A DNA stretch of 64,000 nt, from NCBI GenBank assembly GCA_934163035.1, contig CAKPJX010000003.1:3992-67991 (forward strand). The letters are read 5' to 3'. Positions 43,819 to 64,000 of the stretch are shown piece after piece. The notes below the pieces were generated by a model. It did no database searches. It was given only the letters and a program-made list of their open reading frames with translations, and was not told the origin of the DNA. How positions within the stretch are numbered: position 1 is the first letter of the stretch; each line of letters opens with the position of its first letter. The translations under genes were made by a program, and so were the position numbers. The DNA comes from an uncultured Bacilli bacterium (GTDB lineage Bacteria > Bacillota_I > Bacilli_A > RF39 > UBA660).

Positions 43819-44415
43819 TTATTCTATTTCTTTACGATCCTTTAAGGCTCTCTCTAAAGTTAAGCTATCAACATACTCCATATCAACACCTATAGGAACA
43901 CCATTAGCCAATTTAGTAATAGAAATATTCATATCAGATAAAATCTTTTTAATATATAAAGCAGTCGTTTCACCTTCAATGCTAGGCTTAAATGCAAAAA
44001 TGATTTCAGAAAAGCCCTCCTTTTCAACCCTATCAACTAATTTATCAATACCTATATCTTCTGGATTAATACCGTCTAATGGAGATATAAGTCCTTCTAG
44101 AACATGATACTTTCCATTAAACATATTCTGCTTTTCAAATAAAAAAACTGTTTTTACATCTTCAACAACACACAAAATATTAGAATTTCTAGATAAGTCA
44201 CTGCATATAGAACAATATTCATTTTCAGTTAAAACATTACATTTCGCACATTTATGTATTTTGCTTTTTACATCAACCAAACTATTAGAAAAGAACTCCA
44301 CCTGATCACCATCCATACCTAAAACACAAAAAGCCAGCCTCTCAGCTGTTTTTTCTCCTATTCCAGGTAACATTTTAAAAGATTCTATTAAGTTTTTAAT
44401 ACTATCAGGATACAT
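43819..44415 (-). CDS. recR: Recombination protein RecR
   Basis: ORF track. HhH (LPGIGEKTAERLAF), C4 zinc finger (CAKCNVLTENEYCSIC) and a Toprim region. Confidence 0.95.
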   Translation of the reverse strand: MYPDSIKNLIESFKMLPGIGEKTAERLAFCVLGMDGDQVEFFSNSLVDVKSKIHKCAKCNVLTENEYCSICSDLSRNSNILCVVEDVKTVFLFEKQNMFNGKYHVLEGLISPLDGINPEDIGIDKLVDRVEKEGFSEIIFAFKPSIEGETTALYIKKILSDMNISITKLANGVPIGVDMEYVDSLTLERALKDRKEIE

Positions 44416-44423
44416 ATTAAATA

Positions 44424-44720
44424 TTAAAATAAACCTGGTATATTACCAAACTTTCCCATCTTTTTTTCAGTTGCTGCATCAACTTTAGAAAAAGCATCAT
44501 TCAAAGCAACCATAATCATATCTTCCAAAATTTCAAGATCATCGGTGCCAAGATTGTCTTTATCTTGAATTTCAACTTTTGTTACCTTTTTAGAACCAAG
44601 TACGGTAACTTTAACTAAAGAACTTTCACCAACAAATTCAGTAGCATCAAGTTCTTCTTTAACCTTTAACATATCTCTTTGTAAAGCTTGGGCTTGTTTC
44701 ATCATAGCTTGTATATTCAT
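44424..44720 (-). CDS. ybaB: Nucleoid-associated protein YbaB/EbfC (YaaK)
   Basis: ORF track. ~98 aa. MMKQAQALQ...; dnaX-ybaB-recR synteny. Confidence 0.9.
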   Translation of the reverse strand: MNIQAMMKQAQALQRDMLKVKEELDATEFVGESSLVKVTVLGSKKVTKVEIQDKDNLGTDDLEILEDMIMVALNDAFSKVDAATEKKMGKFGNIPGLF

Positions 44721-44734
44721 ATAATATCTCCTTT

Positions 44735-46438
44735 TTAATTAAATTCTACTAAATCACCAAATAATTTAACAGCTTCATTTTGTATTATATCATCATTTTC
44801 TAAATCATCAAACAATTCTTTTGGTTCTTCCATAACAGTATAGTTTTTTCCAGATCTAATTGCAGAAATATACTTACTTTTTTCTTCATTCCATACATCA
44901 TCACTAATAAAGGCCAATTTTTTATTAGAATTTGTTATTTTATTGAAAACTGCACTAATCTTGTCAATGATTTCTAAGTTTTTTTTCACAATTGAATCAT
45001 ATTCAAAACTTATTATAATATTATTAGTAGATGATGCTCTTATTTTTCCGTCAAGTAAACTACAAACCAAGTAACCTATTTTCTTATCAAATGTATAATC
45101 CTTCAACAATTCAAATTTTTGTTGATCATTTCTTAAAATGCTCTTGTCTGCTAACGCCAACGTATTATTAACTCTAACAATCATTATTTCTTCAATATTA
45201 TTAGGAATTTTTTGCTTTATGTTATTGTCTGCCAAAACTGAATCATTTTGAACCGAACCAGCAATACCTAAATTATTAATTTTTTCATGATAATCATCAA
45301 TATCTTTATCAGCTGCATTTTTTACATCAACAAGCGTGTTATTAATAACCGTTTCCTGATTAGAATTTATTTCCCGGGAAATAATTTTATCATTTTTACT
45401 AATAGAATCAACAAATCCAAGTAGCAATAATTCAAAAGAAATTCTAGGATTATTGCCTTTTTTAATATCGAACATTTTTTCGCACAACAATGAAGTTAAT
45501 GTTTCAACATCATTCAATTCATATGGACATAATGTGCCACTTATATAATAATCCACAAGCATATCTCTAAGAAAATACATAAGTTGAGAAGCTATTTCAA
45601 CAATATTCTTACCATTGGAATCAAATAAATTTATTTGTCTTAATAGTTCTGACATATTTTTTTGAAATATACACTGAGTAAATTTTTCCAGTTCTGAAAC
45701 ACCAATCATATCATTTAATTCATAAAAATCAGACAATTCTATCATTTCATTTTCATTCTTATAGGCTTTTAATTTATCAAGAATACCCAAAGCATCCCTT
45801 AGTCCACCATCAGATATTCTAGCTATTTCATTAAGAACATTATCATCTATTAAAATTTTTTCTTTTGAACAAACAAATCTTAATTTTTCAATTAAAGATA
45901 GCAAAGAAATCTTTTTAAATGAAAAACATTGGCATCTAGAAACAATAGTTTCAGGAACTTTTTGTGGATCCGTTGTAGCCAAAATAAAAATAATATGTTC
46001 AGGTGGCTCTTCAAGAATTTTCAATAAAGCATTGAAAGCTCCAATCGAAAGCATATGAACTTCATCAATAATGTAAACTTTAAATTTTAATTGAGATGGA
46101 ACAAGCATTGCATTATTTTTAAGTTCTCTTATTTCATCAACACCATTATTAGAAGCAGCATCCATTTCTATAATATCAATACAATCCCTATCCAAAGATA
46201 TAAGACAATTATCACATTTTTCACAGCAATTTCCATTAATTGGATCTAAACAATTAACAGCTCTAGCTAATATTTTAGAAACAGTAGTCTTTCCAACTCC
46301 CCTAGGGCCAAAAAACATATATGCATGACTAAAATTTTTATGCTCAATTGCATTTTTTAATGTTTTAACTATAACATCTTGTCCGACAACATCATCAAAA
46401 CTATGAGGCCTATATTTTCTATATAAAGCATGATACAT
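44735..46438 (-). CDS. dnaX: DNA polymerase III subunit gamma/tau
   Basis: ORF track. YRKYRP, Walker A GPRGVGKTT, zinc module CxxCxxC, DEVHMLS, SRCQ. Confidence 0.95.
   Translation of the reverse strand: MYHALYRKYRPHSFDDVVGQDVIVKTLKNAIEHKNFSHAYMFFGPRGVGKTTVSKILARAVNCLDPINGNCCEKCDNCLISLDRDCIDIIEMDAASNNGVDEIRELKNNAMLVPSQLKFKVYIIDEVHMLSIGAFNALLKILEEPPEHIIFILATTDPQKVPETIVSRCQCFSFKKISLLSLIEKLRFVCSKEKILIDDNVLNEIARISDGGLRDALGILDKLKAYKNENEMIELSDFYELNDMIGVSELEKFTQCIFQKNMSELLRQINLFDSNGKNIVEIASQLMYFLRDMLVDYYISGTLCPYELNDVETLTSLLCEKMFDIKKGNNPRISFELLLLGFVDSISKNDKIISREINSNQETVINNTLVDVKNAADKDIDDYHEKINNLGIAGSVQNDSVLADNNIKQKIPNNIEEIMIVRVNNTLALADKSILRNDQQKFELLKDYTFDKKIGYLVCSLLDGKIRASSTNNIIISFEYDSIVKKNLEIIDKISAVFNKITNSNKKLAFISDDVWNEEKSKYISAIRSGKNYTVMEEPKELFDDLENDDIIQNEAVKLFGDLVEFN
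45368..45383. other. Noc-binding-site-type palindrome TATTTCCCGGGAAATA inside the dnaX coding sequence
   Basis: A perfect 16-mer, with 23/24 identity to the 24-bp intergenic repeat at 47102, 47536 and 48074. It encodes ...IISREIN... in the variable linker of DnaX. Confidence 0.6.
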
Positions 46439-46495
46439 TATAAAACCTCCCTACAGACCAATTATATCACATATAAAGAAAAAAAAAGAAGACAA

Positions 46496-46945
46496 TTACA
46501 TTGTTCTTCTATCAGAAAAAAAACGTTGCATTAGACTTTTTGCTTTTAAAGGTAAAACATCATTATAAAATTCTACAGATGGATTAATTGATTCCGAATT
46601 AAATATTTTACTGATTATATCATAATTATTATCATCACTATTTTTTAGTGCTGCATAAACACGTTTAATACGGGATTGTCTAATTGCACTGGCACACATA
46701 GGACATGGTTCCAAAGTAACATACATTTCACAATCATTTAAACGCCAATTCTTTAGTTTTTTTGATGCTTTAATAATTGCTAAAATTTCAGCATGATTAA
46801 TTGAAGAATTACACTTTTCCTTAGTATTATACGCCCTTGATATTACACATCCATCTTTAACAATAACAGCACCAACAGGTACTTCACCGATAGAGCAAGC
46901 TTTCTGTGCTTGTTTCAGTGCCATATTCATATATTTAATATTCAT
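46496..46945 (-). CDS. tadA: tRNA adenosine(34) deaminase
   Basis: ORF track 46496..46954. HAEILAI and PCPMCASA zinc motifs. ATG at 46945 is 5 nt after AGGTGA. Confidence 0.9.
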   Translation of the reverse strand: MNIKYMNMALKQAQKACSIGEVPVGAVIVKDGCVISRAYNTKEKCNSSINHAEILAIIKASKKLKNWRLNDCEMYVTLEPCPMCASAIRQSRIKRVYAALKNSDDNNYDIISKIFNSESINPSVEFYNDVLPLKAKSLMQRFFSDRRTM

Positions 46946-46963
46946 AAAATTCACCTAAAATAA

Positions 46964-47038
46964 AAGTGCACATGAAAGGTTAATATTAAGGCTGCTATCT
47001 TCCGATTCTGACCTGGTTCTATCTCTCTCATTGCACGT
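46964..47038 (-). ncRNA. ffs: Signal recognition particle RNA, short 4.5S-type
   Basis: The minus strand reads ACGUGCAAUGAGAGAGAUAGAACCAGGUCAGAAUCGGAAGAUAGCAGCCUUAAUAUUAACCUUUCAUGUGCAC followed by UUUUAUUUU. The conserved domain IV (CCAGGUCAG...CGGAAG...AGCAGCC) aligns with E. coli 4.5S RNA. The 5' and 3' ends pair (GUGCA.AUGA / UCAUGUGCAC). Confidence 0.85.
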
Positions 47039-47042
47039 ATTT

Positions 47043-47071
47043 ATTCTAATACATATATTAATTTTTGTAAA
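47043..47071 (-). promoter_or_regulatory. Promoter of the SRP RNA gene
   Basis: The minus strand reads TTTACA-17 nt-TAGAAT, placing the start site about 6-7 nt downstream, at the first base of the closing helix. Confidence 0.55.
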
Positions 47072-47101
47072 CAACTTTTTTAAAATAAGTCTATTAACGC
47101 A

Positions 47102-47125
47102 AAATTATTTCCCGGGAAATAATTT
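47102..47125. other. Noc-binding-site-type palindrome 1 (AAATTATTTCCCGGGAAATAATTT)
   Basis: A perfect 24-bp palindrome. The core TATTTCCCGGGAAATA contains the B. subtilis NBS consensus ATTTCCCGGGAAAT. Confidence 0.75.
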
Positions 47126-47149
47126 AAAATATTAAGAAAGCAAATTTTC

Positions 47150-47169
47150 AATGTTCCACGTGGAACATT
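47150..47169. other. parS: parS centromere site 1 (AATGTTCCACGTGGAACATT)
   Basis: A perfect 20-bp palindrome. The core TGTTCCACGTGGAACA (47152-47167) matches the B. subtilis parS consensus TGTTNCACGTGAAACA at 15/16 positions. The one difference makes the site fully symmetric. Confidence 0.85.
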
Positions 47170-47261
47170 AGTAAAAATAGATATGTAATAGAATTAAAAT
47201 TAGCAAAACTAAAGTATTTGCTTCTTAGGTAACGTAATTTTACTATTAACACATAAACATT

Positions 47262-47283
47262 TAATGTTCCACGTGGAACATTA
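47262..47283. other. parS: parS centromere site 2 (TAATGTTCCACGTGGAACATTA)
   Basis: A perfect 22-bp palindrome with the same 16-bp core at 47265-47280. Confidence 0.85.
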
Positions 47284-47468
47284 GGTCTATATTAATGATA
47301 AATTAATTATATATCACAATTTCAATAAAAATAAGAGTCGTTATCAAGTCACTAATAAATTTCAAAGCTTAAATATTTTTTCAAAAACACCTATCATTAA
47401 AGCAAAGCAAATATTAAAATCCATATACTATAAATATAATAATAGCAAATAATATTTTTGTACTAAGC

Positions 47469-47488
47469 AATGTTCCACGTGGAACATT
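47469..47488. other. parS: parS centromere site 3 (AATGTTCCACGTGGAACATT)
   Basis: A perfect 20-bp palindrome with the same core at 47471-47486. It shares the downstream 10-mer AAAAATAGAT with site 1. Confidence 0.85.
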
Positions 47489-47535
47489 AAAAATAGATGC
47501 CTATGTTGCTAAAAAATATTAAGTTTTATTAATTC

Positions 47536-47559
47536 AAATTATTTCCCGGGAAATAATTT
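47536..47559. other. Noc-binding-site-type palindrome 2 (AAATTATTTCCCGGGAAATAATTT)
   Basis: Identical 24-bp perfect palindrome; core at 47540-47555. Confidence 0.75.
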
Positions 47560-47570
47560 ATCTTAAAATT

Positions 47571-47598
47571 TTGCAATATATTACTCTATTTTTATATT
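47571..47598 (+). promoter_or_regulatory. Promoter-like module, copy 1 (TTGCAA-16-TATATT)
   Basis: Preceded by TTAAAATT. The 15-mer TTAAAATTTTGCAAT is repeated at 47752-47766. No ORF follows. Confidence 0.3.
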
Positions 47599-47759
47599 TT
47601 ATAAATACTTACAAGTAAAATAGTTTTAATCTTTTTCACATAAAACAAATATTATATAAATAAATCTATACTATAAAACTTGTTGAATTTTCTATATTAC
47701 CTTGAAATTTAAATACCATTTTCCATTGAATACCCATAAAATGAATAAAAATTAAAATT

Positions 47760-47787
47760 TTGCAATTTTAATCAACATCTTTATAAT
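47760..47787 (+). promoter_or_regulatory. Promoter-like module, copy 2 (TTGCAA-16-TATAAT)
   Basis: Near-consensus sigma-A hexamers with an A-rich upstream tract. No SD-preceded ORF lies downstream. It points toward the 3' end of gyrA. Confidence 0.4.
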
Positions 47788-48073
47788 TAACTTATATCTA
47801 TTACTCAGCATAACACATTTTATTAAATATATATTGCTATGAAACAATATTTATATTTTCTACTATATTTTTTAAACAATTAATAATCAAAGCTAATTTT
47901 CAAATATTACCAACTTTATTAATATACTTAGCAACAAATTTAAAATCTATAATCAATATTTTACTTTATACAACTTAGCATAGATGTCTTTTAAATATCA
48001 CTTTCAATTAAAAAAGACATTTTAGTGTAATAAAAAAGCACATCAAGTGGTGCGATTGAAATTTCAATTTAAG

Positions 48074-48097
48074 AAATTATTTCCCGGGAAATAATTT
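48074..48097. other. Noc-binding-site-type palindrome 3 (AAATTATTTCCCGGGAAATAATTT)
   Basis: Identical 24-bp perfect palindrome; core at 48078-48093. A 14-bp palindrome ATTGAAATTTCAAT lies 5 nt upstream (48055-48068). Confidence 0.75.
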
Positions 48098-48223
48098 AAA
48101 CATTATAAAAGGTAAATATTGCCAATTAAAATAGTAATAAAATTTTCACAACAGAAATTTATAGCATTTTACTGAATGATCAAAAATATATCAAATTGCA
48201 TACTTTAAATAATTACTAAAACA

Positions 48224-48252
48224 AAAAAATTATTTCAAAGAAATAATTTTTT
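48224..48252 (-). terminator. Candidate gyrA terminator: AT-rich hairpin with NBS-like arms
   Basis: The minus strand reads AAAAAATTATTTC-ttt-GAAATAATTTTTT followed by TGTTTT, about 90 nt after the gyrA stop. The arms equal those of the 24-bp NBS repeat, but the CCCGGG centre is replaced by CAAAG. Confidence 0.45.
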
Positions 48253-48338
48253 ATTACCGAAAAATATTTTATCCACAAGCAAAATATTAATAAAATCTTA
48301 AACAATTATAAAGAAAGAATAGAAAAAATCATTTTCTT

Positions 48339-50774
48339 CTATTCTTCAATAGTATCATCAGAAATTTTTTCCACAACAGCAACAGTTGCAACTTTCTGGT
48401 CATCTTTTAAATTAATTAATTTTACTCCTTGCGTTGCTCTCTTCAATAATGAAATCTGTTGAATTGGCATCTTAATAACAATACCACTGTCAGTAACAAT
48501 TATTGCATCACAATCACTGTTTGCTTCTACACACATAAATGCAGTTAATAAACCATTTTTATCAGTCATGTTCAATGCTTTGACACCCTTACTACCACGA
48601 TGAGTTAAACGATATTCATCAATAGTTGTACGTTTACCATAACCATTCTCAGTAACAACTAACACCTCTTCACCAGAATTAATAACATCAGCACCAACTA
48701 CATAACTTCCATCAAGATCAATACCCTTTACACCTGAACTTCCACGACTCATAGCTCTAACTTCATTTTCATCAAACCTAACCATTCGACCGTTACTTGC
48801 ACCAATAACAATTTCATTTTTTCCACAAGTCTTTTTTACACTTATTAATTCATCATTTTCCTTTAAAACAATGGAAATTTTACCAGTTTTTCTAATATTA
48901 TCAAACTCTCTAATGGCAGTTCTCTTTACGATACCATTCTTAGTAACAAACATCAAATACTCAATACTTTCATCATTAGAATCAATATTTATTATCGAAC
49001 TAATGTTCTCCCTCTTATCTAATTGTAATAGATTAATGATAGGTAATCCCTTTGATTGTCTAGAATACTCTGGTATCTCATATCCTTTTAGTCTATAAAC
49101 CCTTCCTTTATTAGAGAAGAACAAGATATAATCATGAGTTCTCATATAAATCAAATGATCAACAAAGTCAGATTCATTAGTAGACATTCCTTTAATACCA
49201 ACTCCACCACGATTTTGAGTTTTATAAGTATCTGCCTTTAATCTCTTAATATATCCATTATTAGTAAGAGTAATTATTACATCTTCCTCAGGAATTAATG
49301 ATTCATCTTCTATATATTCAATAGCAGTCATATCAATATTTGTACGTCTCTCATCACCATATTTATCTTTAATTTCAAGTAATTCTGTTTTAATTACCTC
49401 TAAAACTCTATGATCACTAGCTAAAATAGATTTTAATTCCTCAATTGTTTTTAATAATTCATTCAAATCATTTTCTATTTTATCTCTTTCTAAACCAGTT
49501 AAACGACGTAATTTCATTTCCAAAATAGCATTAGCCTGTATTTCAGTTAAATTAAACTTAGTAGTTAAGCCTAACCTAGCCTCATCATCAGACTTAGCTG
49601 CTCTTATTAACTTGATTACCTCTTCAATATTATCTAAAGCTATTTTTAAGCCTTCCAAAATATGAACTTTCTTCTCTGCAACATCTAAGTCAAATTTAGT
49701 TCTTCTTATAATTACTTCCTTTTGAAAATCAATATATTTAGATATAATATCCTTCAATCCGAGCGTCCTAGGTACACCCTGATCTAGCATTAAAAAGATG
49801 ATACCATAAGTCGTTTGAAAAGAAGTATGCTTATATAGCTTATTTAAAACTACCTGAGCATTAGCATCCTTTTTCAAAGTAATTGTTATCTTTATGCCAT
49901 TTTTCAAATCAGAATGATAATCAGCAATACCTTCTATCGTTTTATTATGAACGAGCTCAGCAACCTTATTTTTCAACTCCAATGTGTTAACACCATAAGG
50001 TACCTCGTCAATAATAATGTGTTGTTTACCATTTACTTCTTCTATCTGAGCTTTACTTCTAATTGTAATACTGCCTCTACCAGTTTCGTAAGCTTTTCTA
50101 ATTCCACTATTTCCTAAAATAGTAGCACCAGTAGGAAAATCAGGTCCCTTAATATACTGCATCAAGCCATCAACATCAATATCAGGATTATCAATATAAG
50201 CAACACATCCATCTATAACTTCTCGTAAGTTATGAGGTGGAATATTAGTAGCCATACCAACAGCTATACCAGTAGTTCCATTAACCAAAATATTAGGAAA
50301 TCTCGAAGGCAAAACTTCAGGTTCCTTAGTTTGCTCATCAAAATTTGGAACAAAATTTACAGTATTTTTATTAATATTTCTTAATAATTCCAACGAAATT
50401 TTTGATAAACGTGATTCAGTGTAACGCATTGCTGCTGCACCATAACCTTCAATATTACCAAAATTTCCATGTCCATCTATTAACATGTAACGATATGAAA
50501 AGTCTTGTGCCATTCTAACCATAGCTTCGTATATACTAGAATCACCATGTGGATGGTAATTACCCATAACCTCTCCAACCGTTTTAGCACTCTTTTTATG
50601 AGGTTTATCAGGTGTATAACCAGATTCATACATTGAATACAAAATACGTCTGTGAACAGGCTTTAAACCGTCTCTAAGGTCAGGTAAAGCTCTTGCCACT
50701 ATAACACTCATAGAATACTCTAAAAATGAGTCACGTACCTCTTTAACTATATTATTTTGTTCTAATCTATCCAC
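48339..50774 (-). CDS. gyrA: DNA gyrase subunit A
   Basis: ORF track. AMRYTE active-site Tyr region, and a QRDR-like [20 protein letters not shown] start is 7 nt after GGAGGT. Confidence 0.97.
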
Positions 50775-55824: not shown

Positions 55825-57186
55825 TTACACAACCCCTATATCTTTCTTTAACTTTTCAATTATATTTGATAAGTCTTTATTTACTTTTATTTCATTTTCA
55901 ATCTTTTCAACAGAATGCATTACTGTAGAATGGTCCTTTCCACCAAATTCAGTTCCTATCTTAGGAAATGATTCACTGGTCATATTTCTACATAAGTACA
56001 TAGCAATTTGCCGTGGAAAAGAAATATTTGAGCTTCTTTTTTTACTTCTAATATCTTCAACAGATATTTGAAAATACTCTGCTACAATCTTTTGTATTCT
56101 GTGGATATCATTTTTTTCTCCCATACCTTTACTTATAAAGTCTTTTAATGCCTCAATAGCTAAATCTAAGGTAATTTCTACTCCACCCATTATTGTGGAA
56201 TATGCTATTAATCTTGTTATAGAACCCTCTAGTTGCCTAACATCCGTTCCTATGTTAGAAGCAATATATTCTATAACATCTTCTGGTATTTCCTTTTCAA
56301 AATTCCCCCCTACTATCTTTTTCCTTAATATTTCAGTTCTCATTGAAAAATCAGGAGGAAAAATATTAACTGTAAGTCCCCAACAAAATCTAGTTCTTAA
56401 ACGATCTTCTAACAATTTTAAATCGTCTGGAGACCTATCCGATGATATTATAATTTGTTTACTATCATTATACAAAGTGTTAAATGTATGAAAAAATTCT
56501 TGTTGCGTTTGTGTGGCCCCACCTAAAAATTGGATATCATCTATTATCAAAACATCAACATTCCGGTACTTGTTCTTAAAAAAATCAACATAATTAAAGT
56601 TTGTCCCACTATTATCTTTTTTATTAATTCCAATAAAATCTTGAATAAATTGATCACTTGTTACATACAAAACACGTTTATTACTATTTGAAACTATATA
56701 ATTTCCAATAGCATGCATCAGATGTGTTTTACCAAGCCCACTATTACCATAAATAAACAAAGGATTATACATACTACCTGGATTCTCTGCAACTGACAAT
56801 GCCGCCGCTTGTGCAAATTTATTGCTATTACCTACTATAAAATTATCAAAGTTATATTTTGAATTTAAATTAGAATTAATTGCATTGTCATTTTTATTAT
56901 TTTGTATAACAACCTTTTCAGGTGGAAATTCTTTTTCTATTTCCTCTTTCAATAACAGGATTATCTCATATTGACTACCAGTTATTTCAGATAAATTATC
57001 TTTAATCAATTGTGAATAATTATCTATAAGATGTTTCTTGTGAATTGGCATTGGTACTACAATGTAAGCTTTATCATTAATTAATTTATAAAGTTGAGTA
57101 TCGGCAAACCAAGTGTCAAAAGCAAGAGAAGTTAATTCATCTTTTGCTAGACCTAAGAACTTAGCCCATAAAATATCGACATTCAT
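55825..57186 (-). CDS. dnaA: Chromosomal replication initiator protein DnaA
   Basis: ORF track 55825..57204. Walker A GNSGLGKTHL, box VII, and a domain IV (DHSTVMHSVEKI). ATG at 57186 is 7 nt after GGAGA. Confidence 0.97.
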   Translation of the reverse strand: MNVDILWAKFLGLAKDELTSLAFDTWFADTQLYKLINDKAYIVVPMPIHKKHLIDNYSQLIKDNLSEITGSQYEIILLLKEEIEKEFPPEKVVIQNNKNDNAINSNLNSKYNFDNFIVGNSNKFAQAAALSVAENPGSMYNPLFIYGNSGLGKTHLMHAIGNYIVSNSNKRVLYVTSDQFIQDFIGINKKDNSGTNFNYVDFFKNKYRNVDVLIIDDIQFLGGATQTQQEFFHTFNTLYNDSKQIIISSDRSPDDLKLLEDRLRTRFCWGLTVNIFPPDFSMRTEILRKKIVGGNFEKEIPEDVIEYIASNIGTDVRQLEGSITRLIAYSTIMGGVEITLDLAIEALKDFISKGMGEKNDIHRIQKIVAEYFQISVEDIRSKKRSSNISFPRQIAMYLCRNMTSESFPKIGTEFGGKDHSTVMHSVEKIENEIKVNKDLSNIIEKLKKDIGVV

Positions 57187-57445
57187 TCTACCATCTCCCC
57201 ACAAGATAACTAATAAACTACGAATAGTTTACCTTAAATTGTGGAAAAAAGAAACAATTTTATAATAAAAAATTTAATTCACATGCTTTCCACAATTTTT
57301 TCCACATTTAAACACTTGTAATATAATGATAAAATTAAGTTTTCCACATTTTCCACAGATTTTTAATTCACATATTAATAAAAGTTTTAAACAGAATTGT
57401 GGATATTGTTGAAATAACAATTTTTACAATTATTTAAAGTTTTAT
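57187..57445. other. oriC: oriC, dnaA-upstream part: cluster of six DnaA boxes between dnaA and rpmH
   Basis: Boxes (approximate positions): TGTGGAAAA 57240-57248, CTTTCCACA 57286-57294, TTTTCCACA 57297-57305, TTTTCCACA 57339-57347 and 57348-57356 (directly abutting), TGTGGATAT 57397-57405. Two TTAATTCACA near-boxes are also present. Gene orientation switches here. Confidence 0.85.
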
Positions 57446-61024: not shown

Positions 61025-62887
61025 ATGGAATATGAAATTATAGTAGTAGGTGGAGGCCATGCAGGGTGTGAAGCTGCTTTAGCAAGTGCCAGAAAAAATC
61101 ATAAGACTCTATTAATAACAGGTAATATAAATAATATAGCCGACATGCCATGTAATCCATCAATAGGTGGTCCAGCTAAAGGTATTGTTGTAAGAGAAAT
61201 AGATGCTCTAGGTGGTGAAATGGCAAAAATAGCAGATAAAGCTACACTTCAAATTAAAATGTTAAATACAAAAAAGGGACCAGCCGTACAAGCATTAAGA
61301 GCACAAATTGACAAAATAGTATATCCAAAAGAAATGTTACAAGTACTTCAAGATGAAAAAAATCTAGATATAAAAGAAGCTATGGTAGAAAACTTAATTA
61401 CAGAAGATAATAAAATAAAAGGTGTGGTTTTAGAAGATAGTACAAAAATACTTTCGAAAGCCGTAATATTAACAACAGGAACATATTTAAGAGCAGTTAT
61501 ATTAAGAGGTTCTGAAAAAAATTCTGGTGGGCCTCATGGAGAAAAAGAATCCAAAGATTTAAGTAATAAATTAAAAGAATTAGGTTTTAAAATATTGAGA
61601 CTAAAAACAGGAACTCCTCCAAGAGTTGCTAAAGACTCGATAGATTATACAAAAACTAAATTAGAAACAGGGGATGAAGAAATAAGAACATTCTCCTACG
61701 ATAATAAATCATACTACGATGTATCAAATCAAATTCCATGTCACTTAATCTATACAACTCCAACAACTCATGAAATAATAAAAAATCATCTAAAAGAATC
61801 AAGTATGTATGGAGGTTACGTAGAAGGAGTAGGTCCAAGATATTGCCCATCAATAGAAGATAAAATAGTAAGATTCAGTGATAAAGAACGCCATCAACTT
61901 TTTTTAGAACCAGAAAGCATATATTATGATGATATTTATATTCAAGGCTTTTCAACTAGTATGCCAAGAAATATTCAAGAACTAATGGTTCATTCTTTAC
62001 CAGGTTTAGAAAATGCTAAAATATTGAAATATGCTTATGCAATAGAGTATGATGCTATAGATCCAACACAATTAAAGCAATCATTAGAAACTAAATTAAT
62101 ATCTGGACTATATACAGCAGGACAAATTAATGGAACAAGTGGATATGAAGAGGCTGCAGGTCAAGGTTTAATAGCTGGAATAAACGCTGCATTAAAGCTA
62201 GAAAATAAAGAACCATTAGTTTTAAAAAGAAATGAATCATATATAGGTGTATTAATAGATGACTTAGTAACAAAAGGAATAAAGGACCCATATCGTTTAT
62301 TAACTTCCAGAGCAGAGTATAGACTATTATTAAGAAACGATAATGCCGATATAAGATTAACTAAATATGGATACGAAATAGGACTAGTAAATGAAAAAAA
62401 ATATAAAAATTTTGAATTAAAATTAGCCAACATAAAAGAATTGGAAGAATTATTAAAGAATACTAGAATAACACCACAACCAGAAATAAATAAATATATA
62501 GAATCAATAAATTCAACTCCATTAAAAGATGGAATCTCATTATATGAATTACTAAAACGCCCAGAAATAAATATTGAGCAATTAAAAAGATTTGTAGAAT
62601 TAAATTATACCAAAGAAGAACAAGAGCAAGTGGAAATAAATGCTAAATATGAAGGATATATCAAAAAAGCAGTAAAAGAAGCTGAAAAAATGCTTTCTTT
62701 AGAAAAAAAACAAATTCCAGACACAATAGATTATGCTAAAGTGCCTAATCTAGCAAGTGAAGCACGTCAAAAATTAACTGAAATTAAGCCTACAACAATA
62801 GGCCAAGCTTCAAGAATCAGTGGTGTAAACCCATCTGATATATCAATATTAATGGTATATTTAAAAAGGAATGGTCAGAATGGATAG
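61025..62887 (+). CDS. mnmG: tRNA uridine 5-carboxymethylaminomethyl modification enzyme MnmG
   Basis: ORF track. FAD motif [35 protein letters not shown]. Confidence 0.97.
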
Positions 62888-63518
62888 AGAACAGTTTATA
62901 AATGAATTAGCCAAAATAAATGTATTTTTAAATGAAAATCAACTTTCTCAATTAGAAGAATACTATGAACTTTTATTAGAGTGGAATAAAAAAATTAATC
63001 TAACACGAATAACAGAAAAAAAAGAAGTGTATTTAAAACACTTTTATGACAGTTTATCTGTAGTTAAAGCAGTGGATTTAGAAAAACAAGAAAAGTTATG
63101 TGATGTGGGTAGTGGAGCTGGTTTCCCTGGTATAGTTTTAAAAATTGCTTATCCACACTTAAAAATAAAGCTAATAGATTCAAAAAACAAGCGAGTAATT
63201 TACTTAAATGAAATAATAAAAGAATTAGGATTAAAAGATATTGAAGCAATTCATGTAAGATCAGAAGAGTATAATGAAAAGTTTGATGTAGTAACAGTAA
63301 GAGCAGTTGCTTCACTAGATAAGCTAATTATATGGTGTAGCCATTTACTAAAAAAAGAAGGTAAATTAATAGCTATGAAAGCAAATATTGATAATGAACT
63401 GGAAGCATCAAAAAAAATATTAAAAAAATATAATTGTAATATATCTAATATTATAAATTTCCATCTGCCACTAGAAAATAGTCTAAGAAATCTTGTTATT
63501 ATAGAGAATGTAAAATAG
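62880..63518 (+). CDS. rsmG: 16S rRNA (guanine527-N7)-methyltransferase
   Basis: ORF track 62871..63518. NLTRI, HFYDSL and [10 protein letters not shown] motifs. ATG at 62880 has better spacing to AAGGA than the ATG at 62871. Confidence 0.93.
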
Positions 63519-63613
63519 ACACTTCAGTGCTAAAACAATGCTAAAACAATTCGTATTATAAATTTACATTTATATATATATATGATACACTTGAGCTAAT
63601 GAGGAGGAAAATT

Positions 63614-64000
63614 ATGGAAGAAGGAAAGAAAAAGAATAATACAGCTTTAATAATTTTAGTTGTACTGTTAATGGTAGTTTGTTTAGGTATGGGAGGCTAC
63701 ATTTTTATTAGCAAAGATAATAAATCAACTAATTTTGAAAAAACTAATAATGATGCAAACCGTGTTCAAAGTAATAATACCCAAAATAACACAACTAAAA
63801 ATACAAATGCTGAAAACTCAGTAAAAAACAATATAATAATATTTGATGGTTCAAAATCTTTAAATAGCTCTGAAAAAAGTTATACATTATCTTGTCAAGG
63901 AAATGCAGGTATTTGGATTAATGCCACACAAAAAGAGCTAACATTTAGTTTTACGCCTTCAAAAGTAGTTCAATTTTATCAGCTAAATTGGACTAGTAGC
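63614..64000 (+). CDS. Hypothetical N-terminally membrane-anchored, Asn/Thr-rich protein (5' part; runs off the window)
   Basis: Manual translation from ATG 63614, 5 nt after GAGGAGG, gives [82 protein letters not shown]... The frame stays open to the window end. Confidence 0.6.
   Translation, partial: MEEGKKKNNTALIILVVLLMVVCLGMGGYIFISKDNKSTNFEKTNNDANRVQSNNTQNNTTKNTNAENSVKNNIIIFDGSKSLNSSEKSYTLSCQGNAGIWINATQKELTFSFTPSKVVQFYQLNWTSS

Follow-up and report, generated by a model that had tools for sequence, protein, structure and literature searches.

Interleaved ParB- and Noc-type binding sites next to gyrA suggest a composite origin-proximal centromere in uncultured gut Bacilli

The window analyzed here is the whole 64-kb stretch of DNA from an uncultured Bacilli bacterium, and the genes near the locus under study, namely dnaA (55825-57204), dnaN, recF, gyrB, and gyrA, are all on the minus strand. 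The gyrA gene (48339..50774, minus strand), which is recognized by NF004043 with 1142 bits against a cutoff of 902, borders a 1.3-kb ORF-poor spacer (47046..48338), past which lie an SRP RNA gene, then tadA and dnaX. The SRP RNA (46952..47045, minus strand) matches RF00169 with 53 bits against a gathering score of 40 and bounds the cluster of sites described below, with a promoter-like site on its side of the spacer (47071-47043). An earlier note made from the sequence of this DNA had described the surroundings of the cluster as non-coding, and indeed there is no ORF longer than 34 aa in 47046-48338 and no Rfam family besides the flanking SRP RNA. The same note had assigned the cluster to a gyrA-tadA interval, but the SRP RNA intervenes and the gap does not lie directly between these two genes. 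A cluster of near-consensus DnaA boxes upstream of dnaA (57240..57406), together with a change of sign in the GC skew at ~57-58 kb, places the cassette 9-10 kb from oriC, in agreement with the earlier estimate of about 8-10 kb. A further perfect DnaA box, TTATCCACA, is found on the plus strand at 48269..48277, 62 nt after the gyrA stop, and may be an accessory element; DnaA boxes are included in the array repeat unit of several relatives (L002, L029, L030, L063, and L075).

Two kinds of palindrome make up the cluster in this spacer, which is the putative centromere region. The first is the parS site TGTTCCACGTGGAACA, of which there are exactly three copies in the 64-kb window, at 47152, 47265, and 47471. 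Every core is nested in a 20-nt palindrome, AATGTTCCACGTGGAACATT, which likewise has three copies in the window (parS-1, 47150..47169, core 47152-47167; parS-2, 47263..47282, core 47265-47280; parS-3, 47469..47488, core 47471-47486). No further TGTTCCACGTGGAACA was found in the 64 kb even at three mismatches, and shuffled sequence contains a mean of 0.06 copies, with none of 100 shuffles reaching three. The site is fully symmetric and matches the parS consensus TGTTNCACGTGAAACA at 15 of 16 positions; in pattern form parS reads TGTTNCACGTGNAACA, with TATTTCCCGGGAAATA as the counterpart for the Noc-binding site (NBS). The second palindrome is the NBS ATTTCCCGGGAAAT, which has four copies in the window, at 45369, 47107, 47541, and 48079, all within 2.7 kb (mean in shuffles, 0.21; 0 of 100 shuffles reach four). 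At three of these positions there is a perfect 24-nt palindrome, AAATTATTTCCCGGGAAATAATTT, that contains the 16-nt NBS TATTTCCCGGGAAATA. NBS-1 (47102..47125) lies 30 bp from the promoter-like site and, together with the identical NBS-2 (47536..47559), encloses the three parS at distances of 46 and 69 bp. The third identical copy, NBS-3 (48074..48097), is found 515 bp beyond the trio and its two bracketing NBS. Most of the sites sit in the gyrA-SRP RNA spacer. NBS-0 (45368..45383), a perfect 16-nt NBS, is instead in the dnaX coding sequence, where it encodes IISREI in a variable DnaX linker, and the in-dnaX NBS and the IISREI peptide are the same in two relatives (L048 and L071). A decayed NBS relic, AAATTATTTCAAAGAAATAATTTTT (48227..48251), forms the inverted-repeat pairs I6 and I13 with intact NBS copies.

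The three perfect parS palindromes that the earlier note had reported are confirmed and are the only parS cluster in the 64 kb, and its assignment of the two palindromes to the ParB and Noc site consensus holds, exactly so for the NBS core. Both NBS that it had placed at the ends of the trio are present, whereas the third 24-nt copy and the NBS in dnaX had escaped it. The species is also represented in a second, separate metagenome assembly (L362), which agrees with window positions 44360-47417 at 99.6% identity and carries the dnaX NBS, NBS-1, parS-1, and parS-2 as in the window. We also considered whether the palindromes could be transcription terminators, and rejected this, as a weak resemblance to a terminator is seen at parS-2 alone, on the minus strand, and no T-run accompanies it.

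A GyrA search yielded 80 gyrA loci from different species, all of them uncultured Bacilli-type MAGs from the gut, with record titles such as Mycoplasma sp. CAG:877, Clostridium sp. CAG:710, and Candidatus Onthousia. This comparison of the interval after gyrA, which the earlier note had pointed to, bears out the locus as a conserved one: in 70 of the 80 loci gyrA is immediately succeeded by a parS cluster, which starts tens to a few hundred bp from the stop, and gyrA is the conserved upstream neighbor of the array in all relatives. The 10 loci without a cluster are mostly contigs ending at or just past gyrA. Many other contigs end inside arrays, and array lengths in short-read MAGs are thus probably underestimated. 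The parS half-sites TGTTTCAC and TGTTCCAC are interchangeable among the relatives. Exact NBS 16-mers are interleaved with parS in 35 of the 70 arrays, the other 35 containing parS only, and the mixed arrays are concentrated among the closest relatives (27 of 30 in L001-L034; for more distant relatives the figure is 8 of 40). The two site types differ in how closely they are tied to the arrays. In the 1.2 Mb that flank the 80 gyrA loci there is a single parS outside the clusters, compared with 269 inside; the NBS, sampled in origin-proximal DNA only, number 111 within ~60 kb of arrays and 60 in the same 1.2 Mb of flanks, where the copies are often intragenic, and are absent from ~100 kb of loci on the rsmG/noc side. 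Given that only one parS lies outside the clusters and that the outlying NBS are inside genes, we reject the explanation that the palindromes are a generic intergenic repeat or a mobile element.

The arrangement was also sought independently of gyrA. A scan for the pattern NBS-N25-55-parS in 185,579 species, one genome each, matched at least 120 stretches, and among the 80 matches listed nearly all are gut MAGs of uncultured Bacilli, Tenericutes, or Mollicutes. Two complete chromosomes, OZ006970.1 and CP091739.1, are among these 80, and in the first of them (L022), a complete long-read chromosome, the array comprises six parS and six NBS. Ten further mixed arrays came from a metagenome scan, and one of these reproduces the arrangement in the window at 99.6% identity. 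As a negative control we used 80 listed tadA loci (844 kb), mostly from Clostridia and of ~50% identity. Apart from four loci whose titles name Bacilli, Bacillales, or Muribaculaceae, these contain no mixed array and no exact site; of the four, three have parS-only clusters and one (L309) has parS and NBS. An assembly artefact can be dismissed, since well over 100 independent assemblies show the pattern, among them a circular long-read chromosome.

Within the mixed arrays, the two site types alternate. Neighboring sites are of unlike type in 169 of 212 pairs; when the labels were permuted 1000 times, such pairs averaged 114 and did not exceed 137. In some arrays this order is carried by tandem repeats whose unit holds a single parS and a single NBS, as in L034 (a 125-bp unit in 10.7 copies of 91% identity) and L016 (a 76-bp unit in 6.4 copies). 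Such amplified parS/NBS units across the clade support the local duplication at which the earlier note had hinted. In contrast to its suggestion that NBS brackets around a parS trio were the design, the conserved plan is a 1:1 alternation, of which the window presents a partly decayed version.

These repeats raise the possibility that the arrangement is a passive by-product, in which an ancestral spacer with one parS and one NBS was amplified by slippage or unequal recombination, the sites work independently, and their adjacency has no function. We regard this as unlikely, although several observations fit it well. Many arrays are young tandem repeats with a unit identity of 90-91%, units of different length share spacer motifs and probably go back to one ancestral unit, and the duplication of such a unit gives alternation by itself. 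Furthermore, half of the arrays lack NBS altogether, and NBS are also dispersed within genes. However, the array of L004 has the order N-P-N-P-N-P-N-P-N, which is one of 126 possible orders, and that of L007 is nearly so, and neither contains a detectable tandem repeat. In these arrays the sites have thus outlasted their spacers, and the same applies to the window, where the sites are perfect and the spacers outside the palindromes show no detectable repetition. Conservation within the units also argues against a purely passive origin. In a gapped MAFFT alignment of 41-42 units from nine species (an ungapped version was blurred by indels), both palindromes are at least 90% conserved, compared with 40-90% for the spacers. 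The four bases on each side of the NBS are also at least 90% conserved, and the palindromes with these flanks form the most conserved columns of the unit. The clade logo accordingly widens the NBS to ~24 bp, and the flanks of NBS-1 fit this extended logo. The strong enrichment of NBS in arrays over their flanks likewise speaks against mere bystanders. Apart from SRP RNA sequence, degenerate NBS, and DnaA boxes, the last in a minority of arrays, no third conserved motif was found in the array spacers. A possible helical phasing of the parS-NBS spacing was dropped because pairs of 57/68 bp and 49/27 bp are inconsistent in phase.

A search by regular expression found no ParB-like ORF in the window or in the 80 gyrA loci, as neither the window nor the flanks reach noc, soj, and parB; the window stops 1.7 kb before these genes. 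An exact-protein look-up of the rsmG product of the window returned no record. A contig that overlaps window positions 61907-64000 at 98.6% identity, and thus represents the same species (L371), encodes a 431-aa Noc-type protein (P0006), followed by a three-gene insertion and then soj at the contig end. In the congener L081, which is collinear with the window at 89.4% nucleotide identity, and in L372, the noc-type gene, soj, and parB are consecutive, and the noc-type gene lies between rsmG and soj-spo0J in L081, L082, L083, L372, and L371. The search for paralogues that the earlier note had in view therefore finds both partners across oriC from the array, a Noc-type protein (QKSR) in the same species and a ParB (RMSG) in congeners.

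Several lines of evidence relate the first of these proteins to Noc. Its best solved relatives are the Noc structures 7NFU, 7NG0, and 7OL9 (E ~1e-59 to 1e-56), compared with 1e-49 for ParB/Spo0J. Jalal et al. found that the QKKR of Noc, in which one lysine is sufficient, gives NBS specificity whereas RxxG gives parS specificity (PMC7383237). At the positions given by this rule (Q173, K179 and/or K184, and R201), both the L081 Noc-type protein and P0006 have QKSR, and QK[STGA]R is found in 119 of the 120 best homologues, the arginine position not being located in the remaining one. The source databases name the protein, if at all, only as a ParB/RepB/Spo0J family (ParB-family partition) protein. 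On the NCBIfam Noc equivalog TIGR04285 it scores 289 bits, under the cutoff of 315, with model positions 1-212 of 255 aligned, because the C-terminal domain is displaced by an insert. This insert, of ~190 residues, is rich in N, S, and P, of low complexity, and poorly conserved; it separates the DNA-binding domain from the C-terminal dimerization domain and is presumably disordered. The best 120 homologues in the databases are 357-504 aa long.

The N-terminus of the Noc-type protein differs from that of B. subtilis Noc. The alignment begins at about Noc residue 23, so the membrane-targeting helix alpha1 and the helix alpha2 are missing, and among the 120 best homologues only 17-18 residues precede the PNRFQPR motif in all but one, where the motif was not located. 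Upstream of the ATG of the noc-type gene, the reading frame stays open for only 11 codons before a stop is reached. In B. subtilis, the N-terminal amphipathic helix is required for membrane binding and occlusion by Noc (PMC8429893). The earlier note had envisaged a membrane-tether hub; in its classical form, the NBS would recruit a membrane-binding Noc, the centromere would be tethered to the membrane, and division would be occluded over unsegregated origins. Consistent with such a hub, the NBS core has exactly the consensus sequence of B. subtilis and S. aureus, Noc is the nearest relative of the paralogue, and in B. subtilis the formation of Z rings too early is prevented by Spo0J and Noc together (PMC6852036). 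Nevertheless, we consider it very improbable, since the clade variant lacks alpha1 and alpha2 and a hydrophobic-moment scan of the insert revealed neither a basic amphipathic segment nor a substitute helix. The absence of a membrane helix and the presence of a long disordered insert suggest that the role of the protein here is not that of a B. subtilis-type tether. It more likely acts as a second centromere-bound component, either bulking or delimiting the ParB complex or recruiting a partner through its disordered region. An additional canonical Noc may be encoded elsewhere in these genomes. Moreover, given the dispersed and often intragenic NBS outside the arrays, the Noc variant may still act chromosome-wide.

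The second paralogue is a canonical ParB. In L081 it is a protein of 301 aa with an N-terminal LGRGL motif, the specificity residues GKSR...NM...S...MGH (RMSG, that is, the RxxG of parS-type proteins, with the equivalents of R173 and G201), and a score of 206 bits on TIGR00180 (cutoff 58). The CTP motifs GERR and ENLQR are intact in both this ParB and the Noc-type protein. The same-species contig L371 contains Soj (ParA) but ends within soj, which is why ParB is seen in congeners only; from these, the species of the window presumably has it as well.

Based on these findings, we propose that the gyrA-SRP RNA spacer is an origin-proximal centromere of composite type, in which parS would load ParB and the NBS would load the Noc-type paralogue, a reading to which we assign a probability of roughly 55%. 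The three parS palindromes would load the canonical ParB/Spo0J CTP clamp, with its R..G specificity, its N-terminal ParA-interaction motif, and its gene beside soj. The interleaved NBS would load a second clamp, the Noc-type paralogue with Q-K-S-R specificity, whose gene in the rsmG-noc-soj-spo0J neighborhood is on the opposite side of oriC from the array. With just 46-69 bp between the sites, the two clamps would be released on the same ~1 kb of DNA and could form one mixed nucleoprotein complex, and the pairing would have been kept at ~1:1 and tandemly amplified in relatives. The sites with their conservation and alternation, the Noc-type paralogue in the same species and the ParB of congeners with their specificity residues and CTP motifs, and the missing helix are observed; which protein binds which site, their joint loading, and the effect of co-location are inferred. 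That this is a dedicated combined locus, as the earlier note had supposed, is supported by a juxtaposition that is conserved and amplified across the clade. At the same time, NBS interleaving is dispensable for a working array, as is evident from the parS-only half of the related arrays. A stronger version of our proposal would make the Noc paralogue an obligate second centromere subunit rather than a membrane-tethering occlusion factor, with the arrays enforcing ~1:1 co-loading into a mixed partition complex and the insert adding a capacity for condensation or partner recruitment that ParB lacks; this version appears doubtful to us.

Competition or roadblocking between the two clamps, a possibility raised in the earlier note, is also plausible, given that the sliding of ParB-CTP is blocked by DNA-bound proteins in vitro and in vivo (PMC7053999). 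The arrays could thus be insulators, in which Noc-type dimers at the NBS confine sliding ParB-CTP, raise its local density, and shield gyrA and the SRP RNA-tadA-dnaX transcription units. The positions of NBS-1 and NBS-2 around the parS trio in the window, and of NBS-1 close to the promoter-like site of the SRP RNA, would fit such a function, and most of the mixed arrays listed end in an NBS on one side or on both. However, strict alternation would trap ParB within ~125 bp, against the spreading that ParB normally needs, and CTP-bound Noc leaves its site as a sliding clamp and is not a static block (PMC8429893). In addition, parS-only arrays occur between the same genes without such insulation. 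For these reasons an insulator is improbable, and we favor the composite centromere.

Clustered chromosomal parS near oriC and tandem plasmid centromeres, for example F sopC with its 12 x 43-bp repeats, are well known. The arrays resemble them in that many ParB-type sites are packed into a short stretch of origin-proximal non-coding DNA, and the repeat units of the relatives are arranged head-to-tail, each with one site, as in plasmid centromeres. To our knowledge, however, the known tandem centromere arrays are built from a single kind of site bound by a single protein, whereas each unit here combines two different palindromes for what would be two paralogous clamps. The components themselves are those of the Spo0J-parS and Noc-NBS systems of B. 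subtilis (and of S. aureus Noc), with the same 16-bp palindromes TGTTNCACGTGAAACA and TATTTCCCGGGAAATA, a paralogous pair of ParB-family proteins with GERR, ENLQR, and the logic of RxxG versus QK(K)R, and the gene order rsmG-noc-soj-spo0J. In S. aureus, with 41 loci, and in B. subtilis, the NBS are spread across half to two-thirds of the chromosome on the origin-proximal side (PMC5540599, PMC8429893), whereas here they are concentrated in the parS cluster and alternate with parS at ~1:1. The proteins differ as well, the clade variant of Noc being distinguished from that of B. subtilis by the missing N-terminal helix, the ~190-aa insert, and the sub-cutoff TIGR04285 score. In mParSpot, an engineered two-colour labelling system, ParB-parS and Noc-NBS serve as separate labels in one cell (PMC11109969). 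That system is synthetic and has its site types at separate loci, as opposed to the natural, conserved interleaving at a single locus described here. Our literature search for interleaved parS/NBS arrays found no description of them. The parts, parS-ParB and NBS-Noc, are thus already known, and the interleaved arrangement appears to be a new variant whose function is unproven.

Researchers working on ParB and Noc should find these arrays clearly interesting. Among CTP-dependent DNA clamps, these two proteins have been studied most thoroughly, and in model species they have been described at separate sites with separate jobs. A putative dual-loading locus with sites tens of bp apart, present in many species, offers a way to test whether orthogonal clamps block each other, pass, or co-assemble. 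The helix-less, insert-bearing variant implies that "Noc" has a non-tether job in a major group of gut bacteria. There is also a practical aspect for genome assembly, in that an array stands right after gyrA in most of these loci and many contigs break off within it.

Finally, the repeat units may bear on the origin of the NBS itself. When the half-unit after parS is compared with the half-unit after NBS, the two share a segment of 20/23 nt, which is equalled in 22 of 2000 shuffles, this being a single post-hoc comparison. In view of this similarity, the 125-bp unit may have arisen as a dimer of 60-bp subunits that then diverged. On the basis of this shared segment, the arrays may record the origin of NBS by in-situ mutation of parS copies in a tandem centromere, and they may thereby show a new family of binding sites evolving beside its parent after gene duplication.

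Where the array downstream of gyrA is built of 125-bp tandem units, each with one parS and one NBS, the two kinds of site are followed by similar DNA. The spacers after parS and those after NBS have TATA(G)AAGnAAGTATTnATTTTA in common and agree at 20 of 23 positions in L034, L009, the complete chromosome L022 and other arrays of such units, a score that was reached by 22 of 2000 shuffles. Judged from sequence, the 125-bp unit may consist of two diverged ~60-bp subunits, a dimer in which the NBS and parS copies would be paralogous. The more distant relatives L037–L039, L043 and L046 carry very dense arrays of parS only downstream of gyrA, with a period of 26–37 bp, a gap of barely 10–20 bp between sites and the variant ...GAAACT.

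Many contigs of the metagenome-assembled genomes end inside or right at the post-gyrA array (L005, L008, L009, L013, L015, L016, L020, L026–L028, L037–L039, L041, L043, L046 and L049). Short-read assemblies are evidently broken by the tandem units and, therefore, the array copy numbers are probably underestimated. Eight array-bearing loci titled Muribaculaceae, Bacteroides or Bacteroidaceae (L012, L170, L188, L196, L205, L219, L228 and L339) are probably Bacilli contigs that were assigned to the wrong bin.

The window has a perfect DnaA box, TTATCCACA, at 48269–48277, 62 nt past the gyrA stop codon, and in several relatives (L002, L029, L030, L063 and L075) DnaA boxes recur with the period of the array; in L030, NBS, DnaA box and parS follow one another inside ~45 bp. 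Together, the box after gyrA and the periodic boxes in relatives hint at a link between the array and the control of replication initiation.

NBS palindromes are also found within genes. In the window, a perfect NBS at 45368–45383 lies in the dnaX coding sequence, where it dictates the peptide IISREI in the variable DnaX linker, and the identical site and peptide are present in two related gyrA loci, L048 and L071. Further in-gene NBS sites repeat at fixed offsets across gyrA loci (e.g., ~7708).

The Noc-type protein of the clade (congener L081:11685–12989; same-species strain L371:3700–4995; database homologues P0001–P0120), named only as a ParB-family protein in the source databases, is without an N-terminal membrane-targeting helix. 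It has a low-complexity insert of ~190 aa containing a few short conserved motifs, such as KFINYGE, VDINAIKNNAQDIN, LDSLLN and DYFxxPD. Between rsmG and noc lies a gene whose product, a membrane protein of ~230 aa with a single transmembrane pass, gave no family match (window 63616–64000; L081:10733–11425; L371:1700–2404); the gene is present in the genus of the window and missing from the locus L082. Within L371:2811–6590, a DDE_Tnp_1_assoc gene stands between this membrane-protein gene and noc, and three inserted genes, two of them weakly WXG100-like, separate noc from soj. Neither insertion occurs in the congeners L081 and L372.

On the side of the array away from gyrA, the SRP RNA gene (window 46952–47045) runs at its 3' end 3 nt into tadA (46496–46954), across the GTG annotated as the tadA start; the true start may be the ATG downstream.
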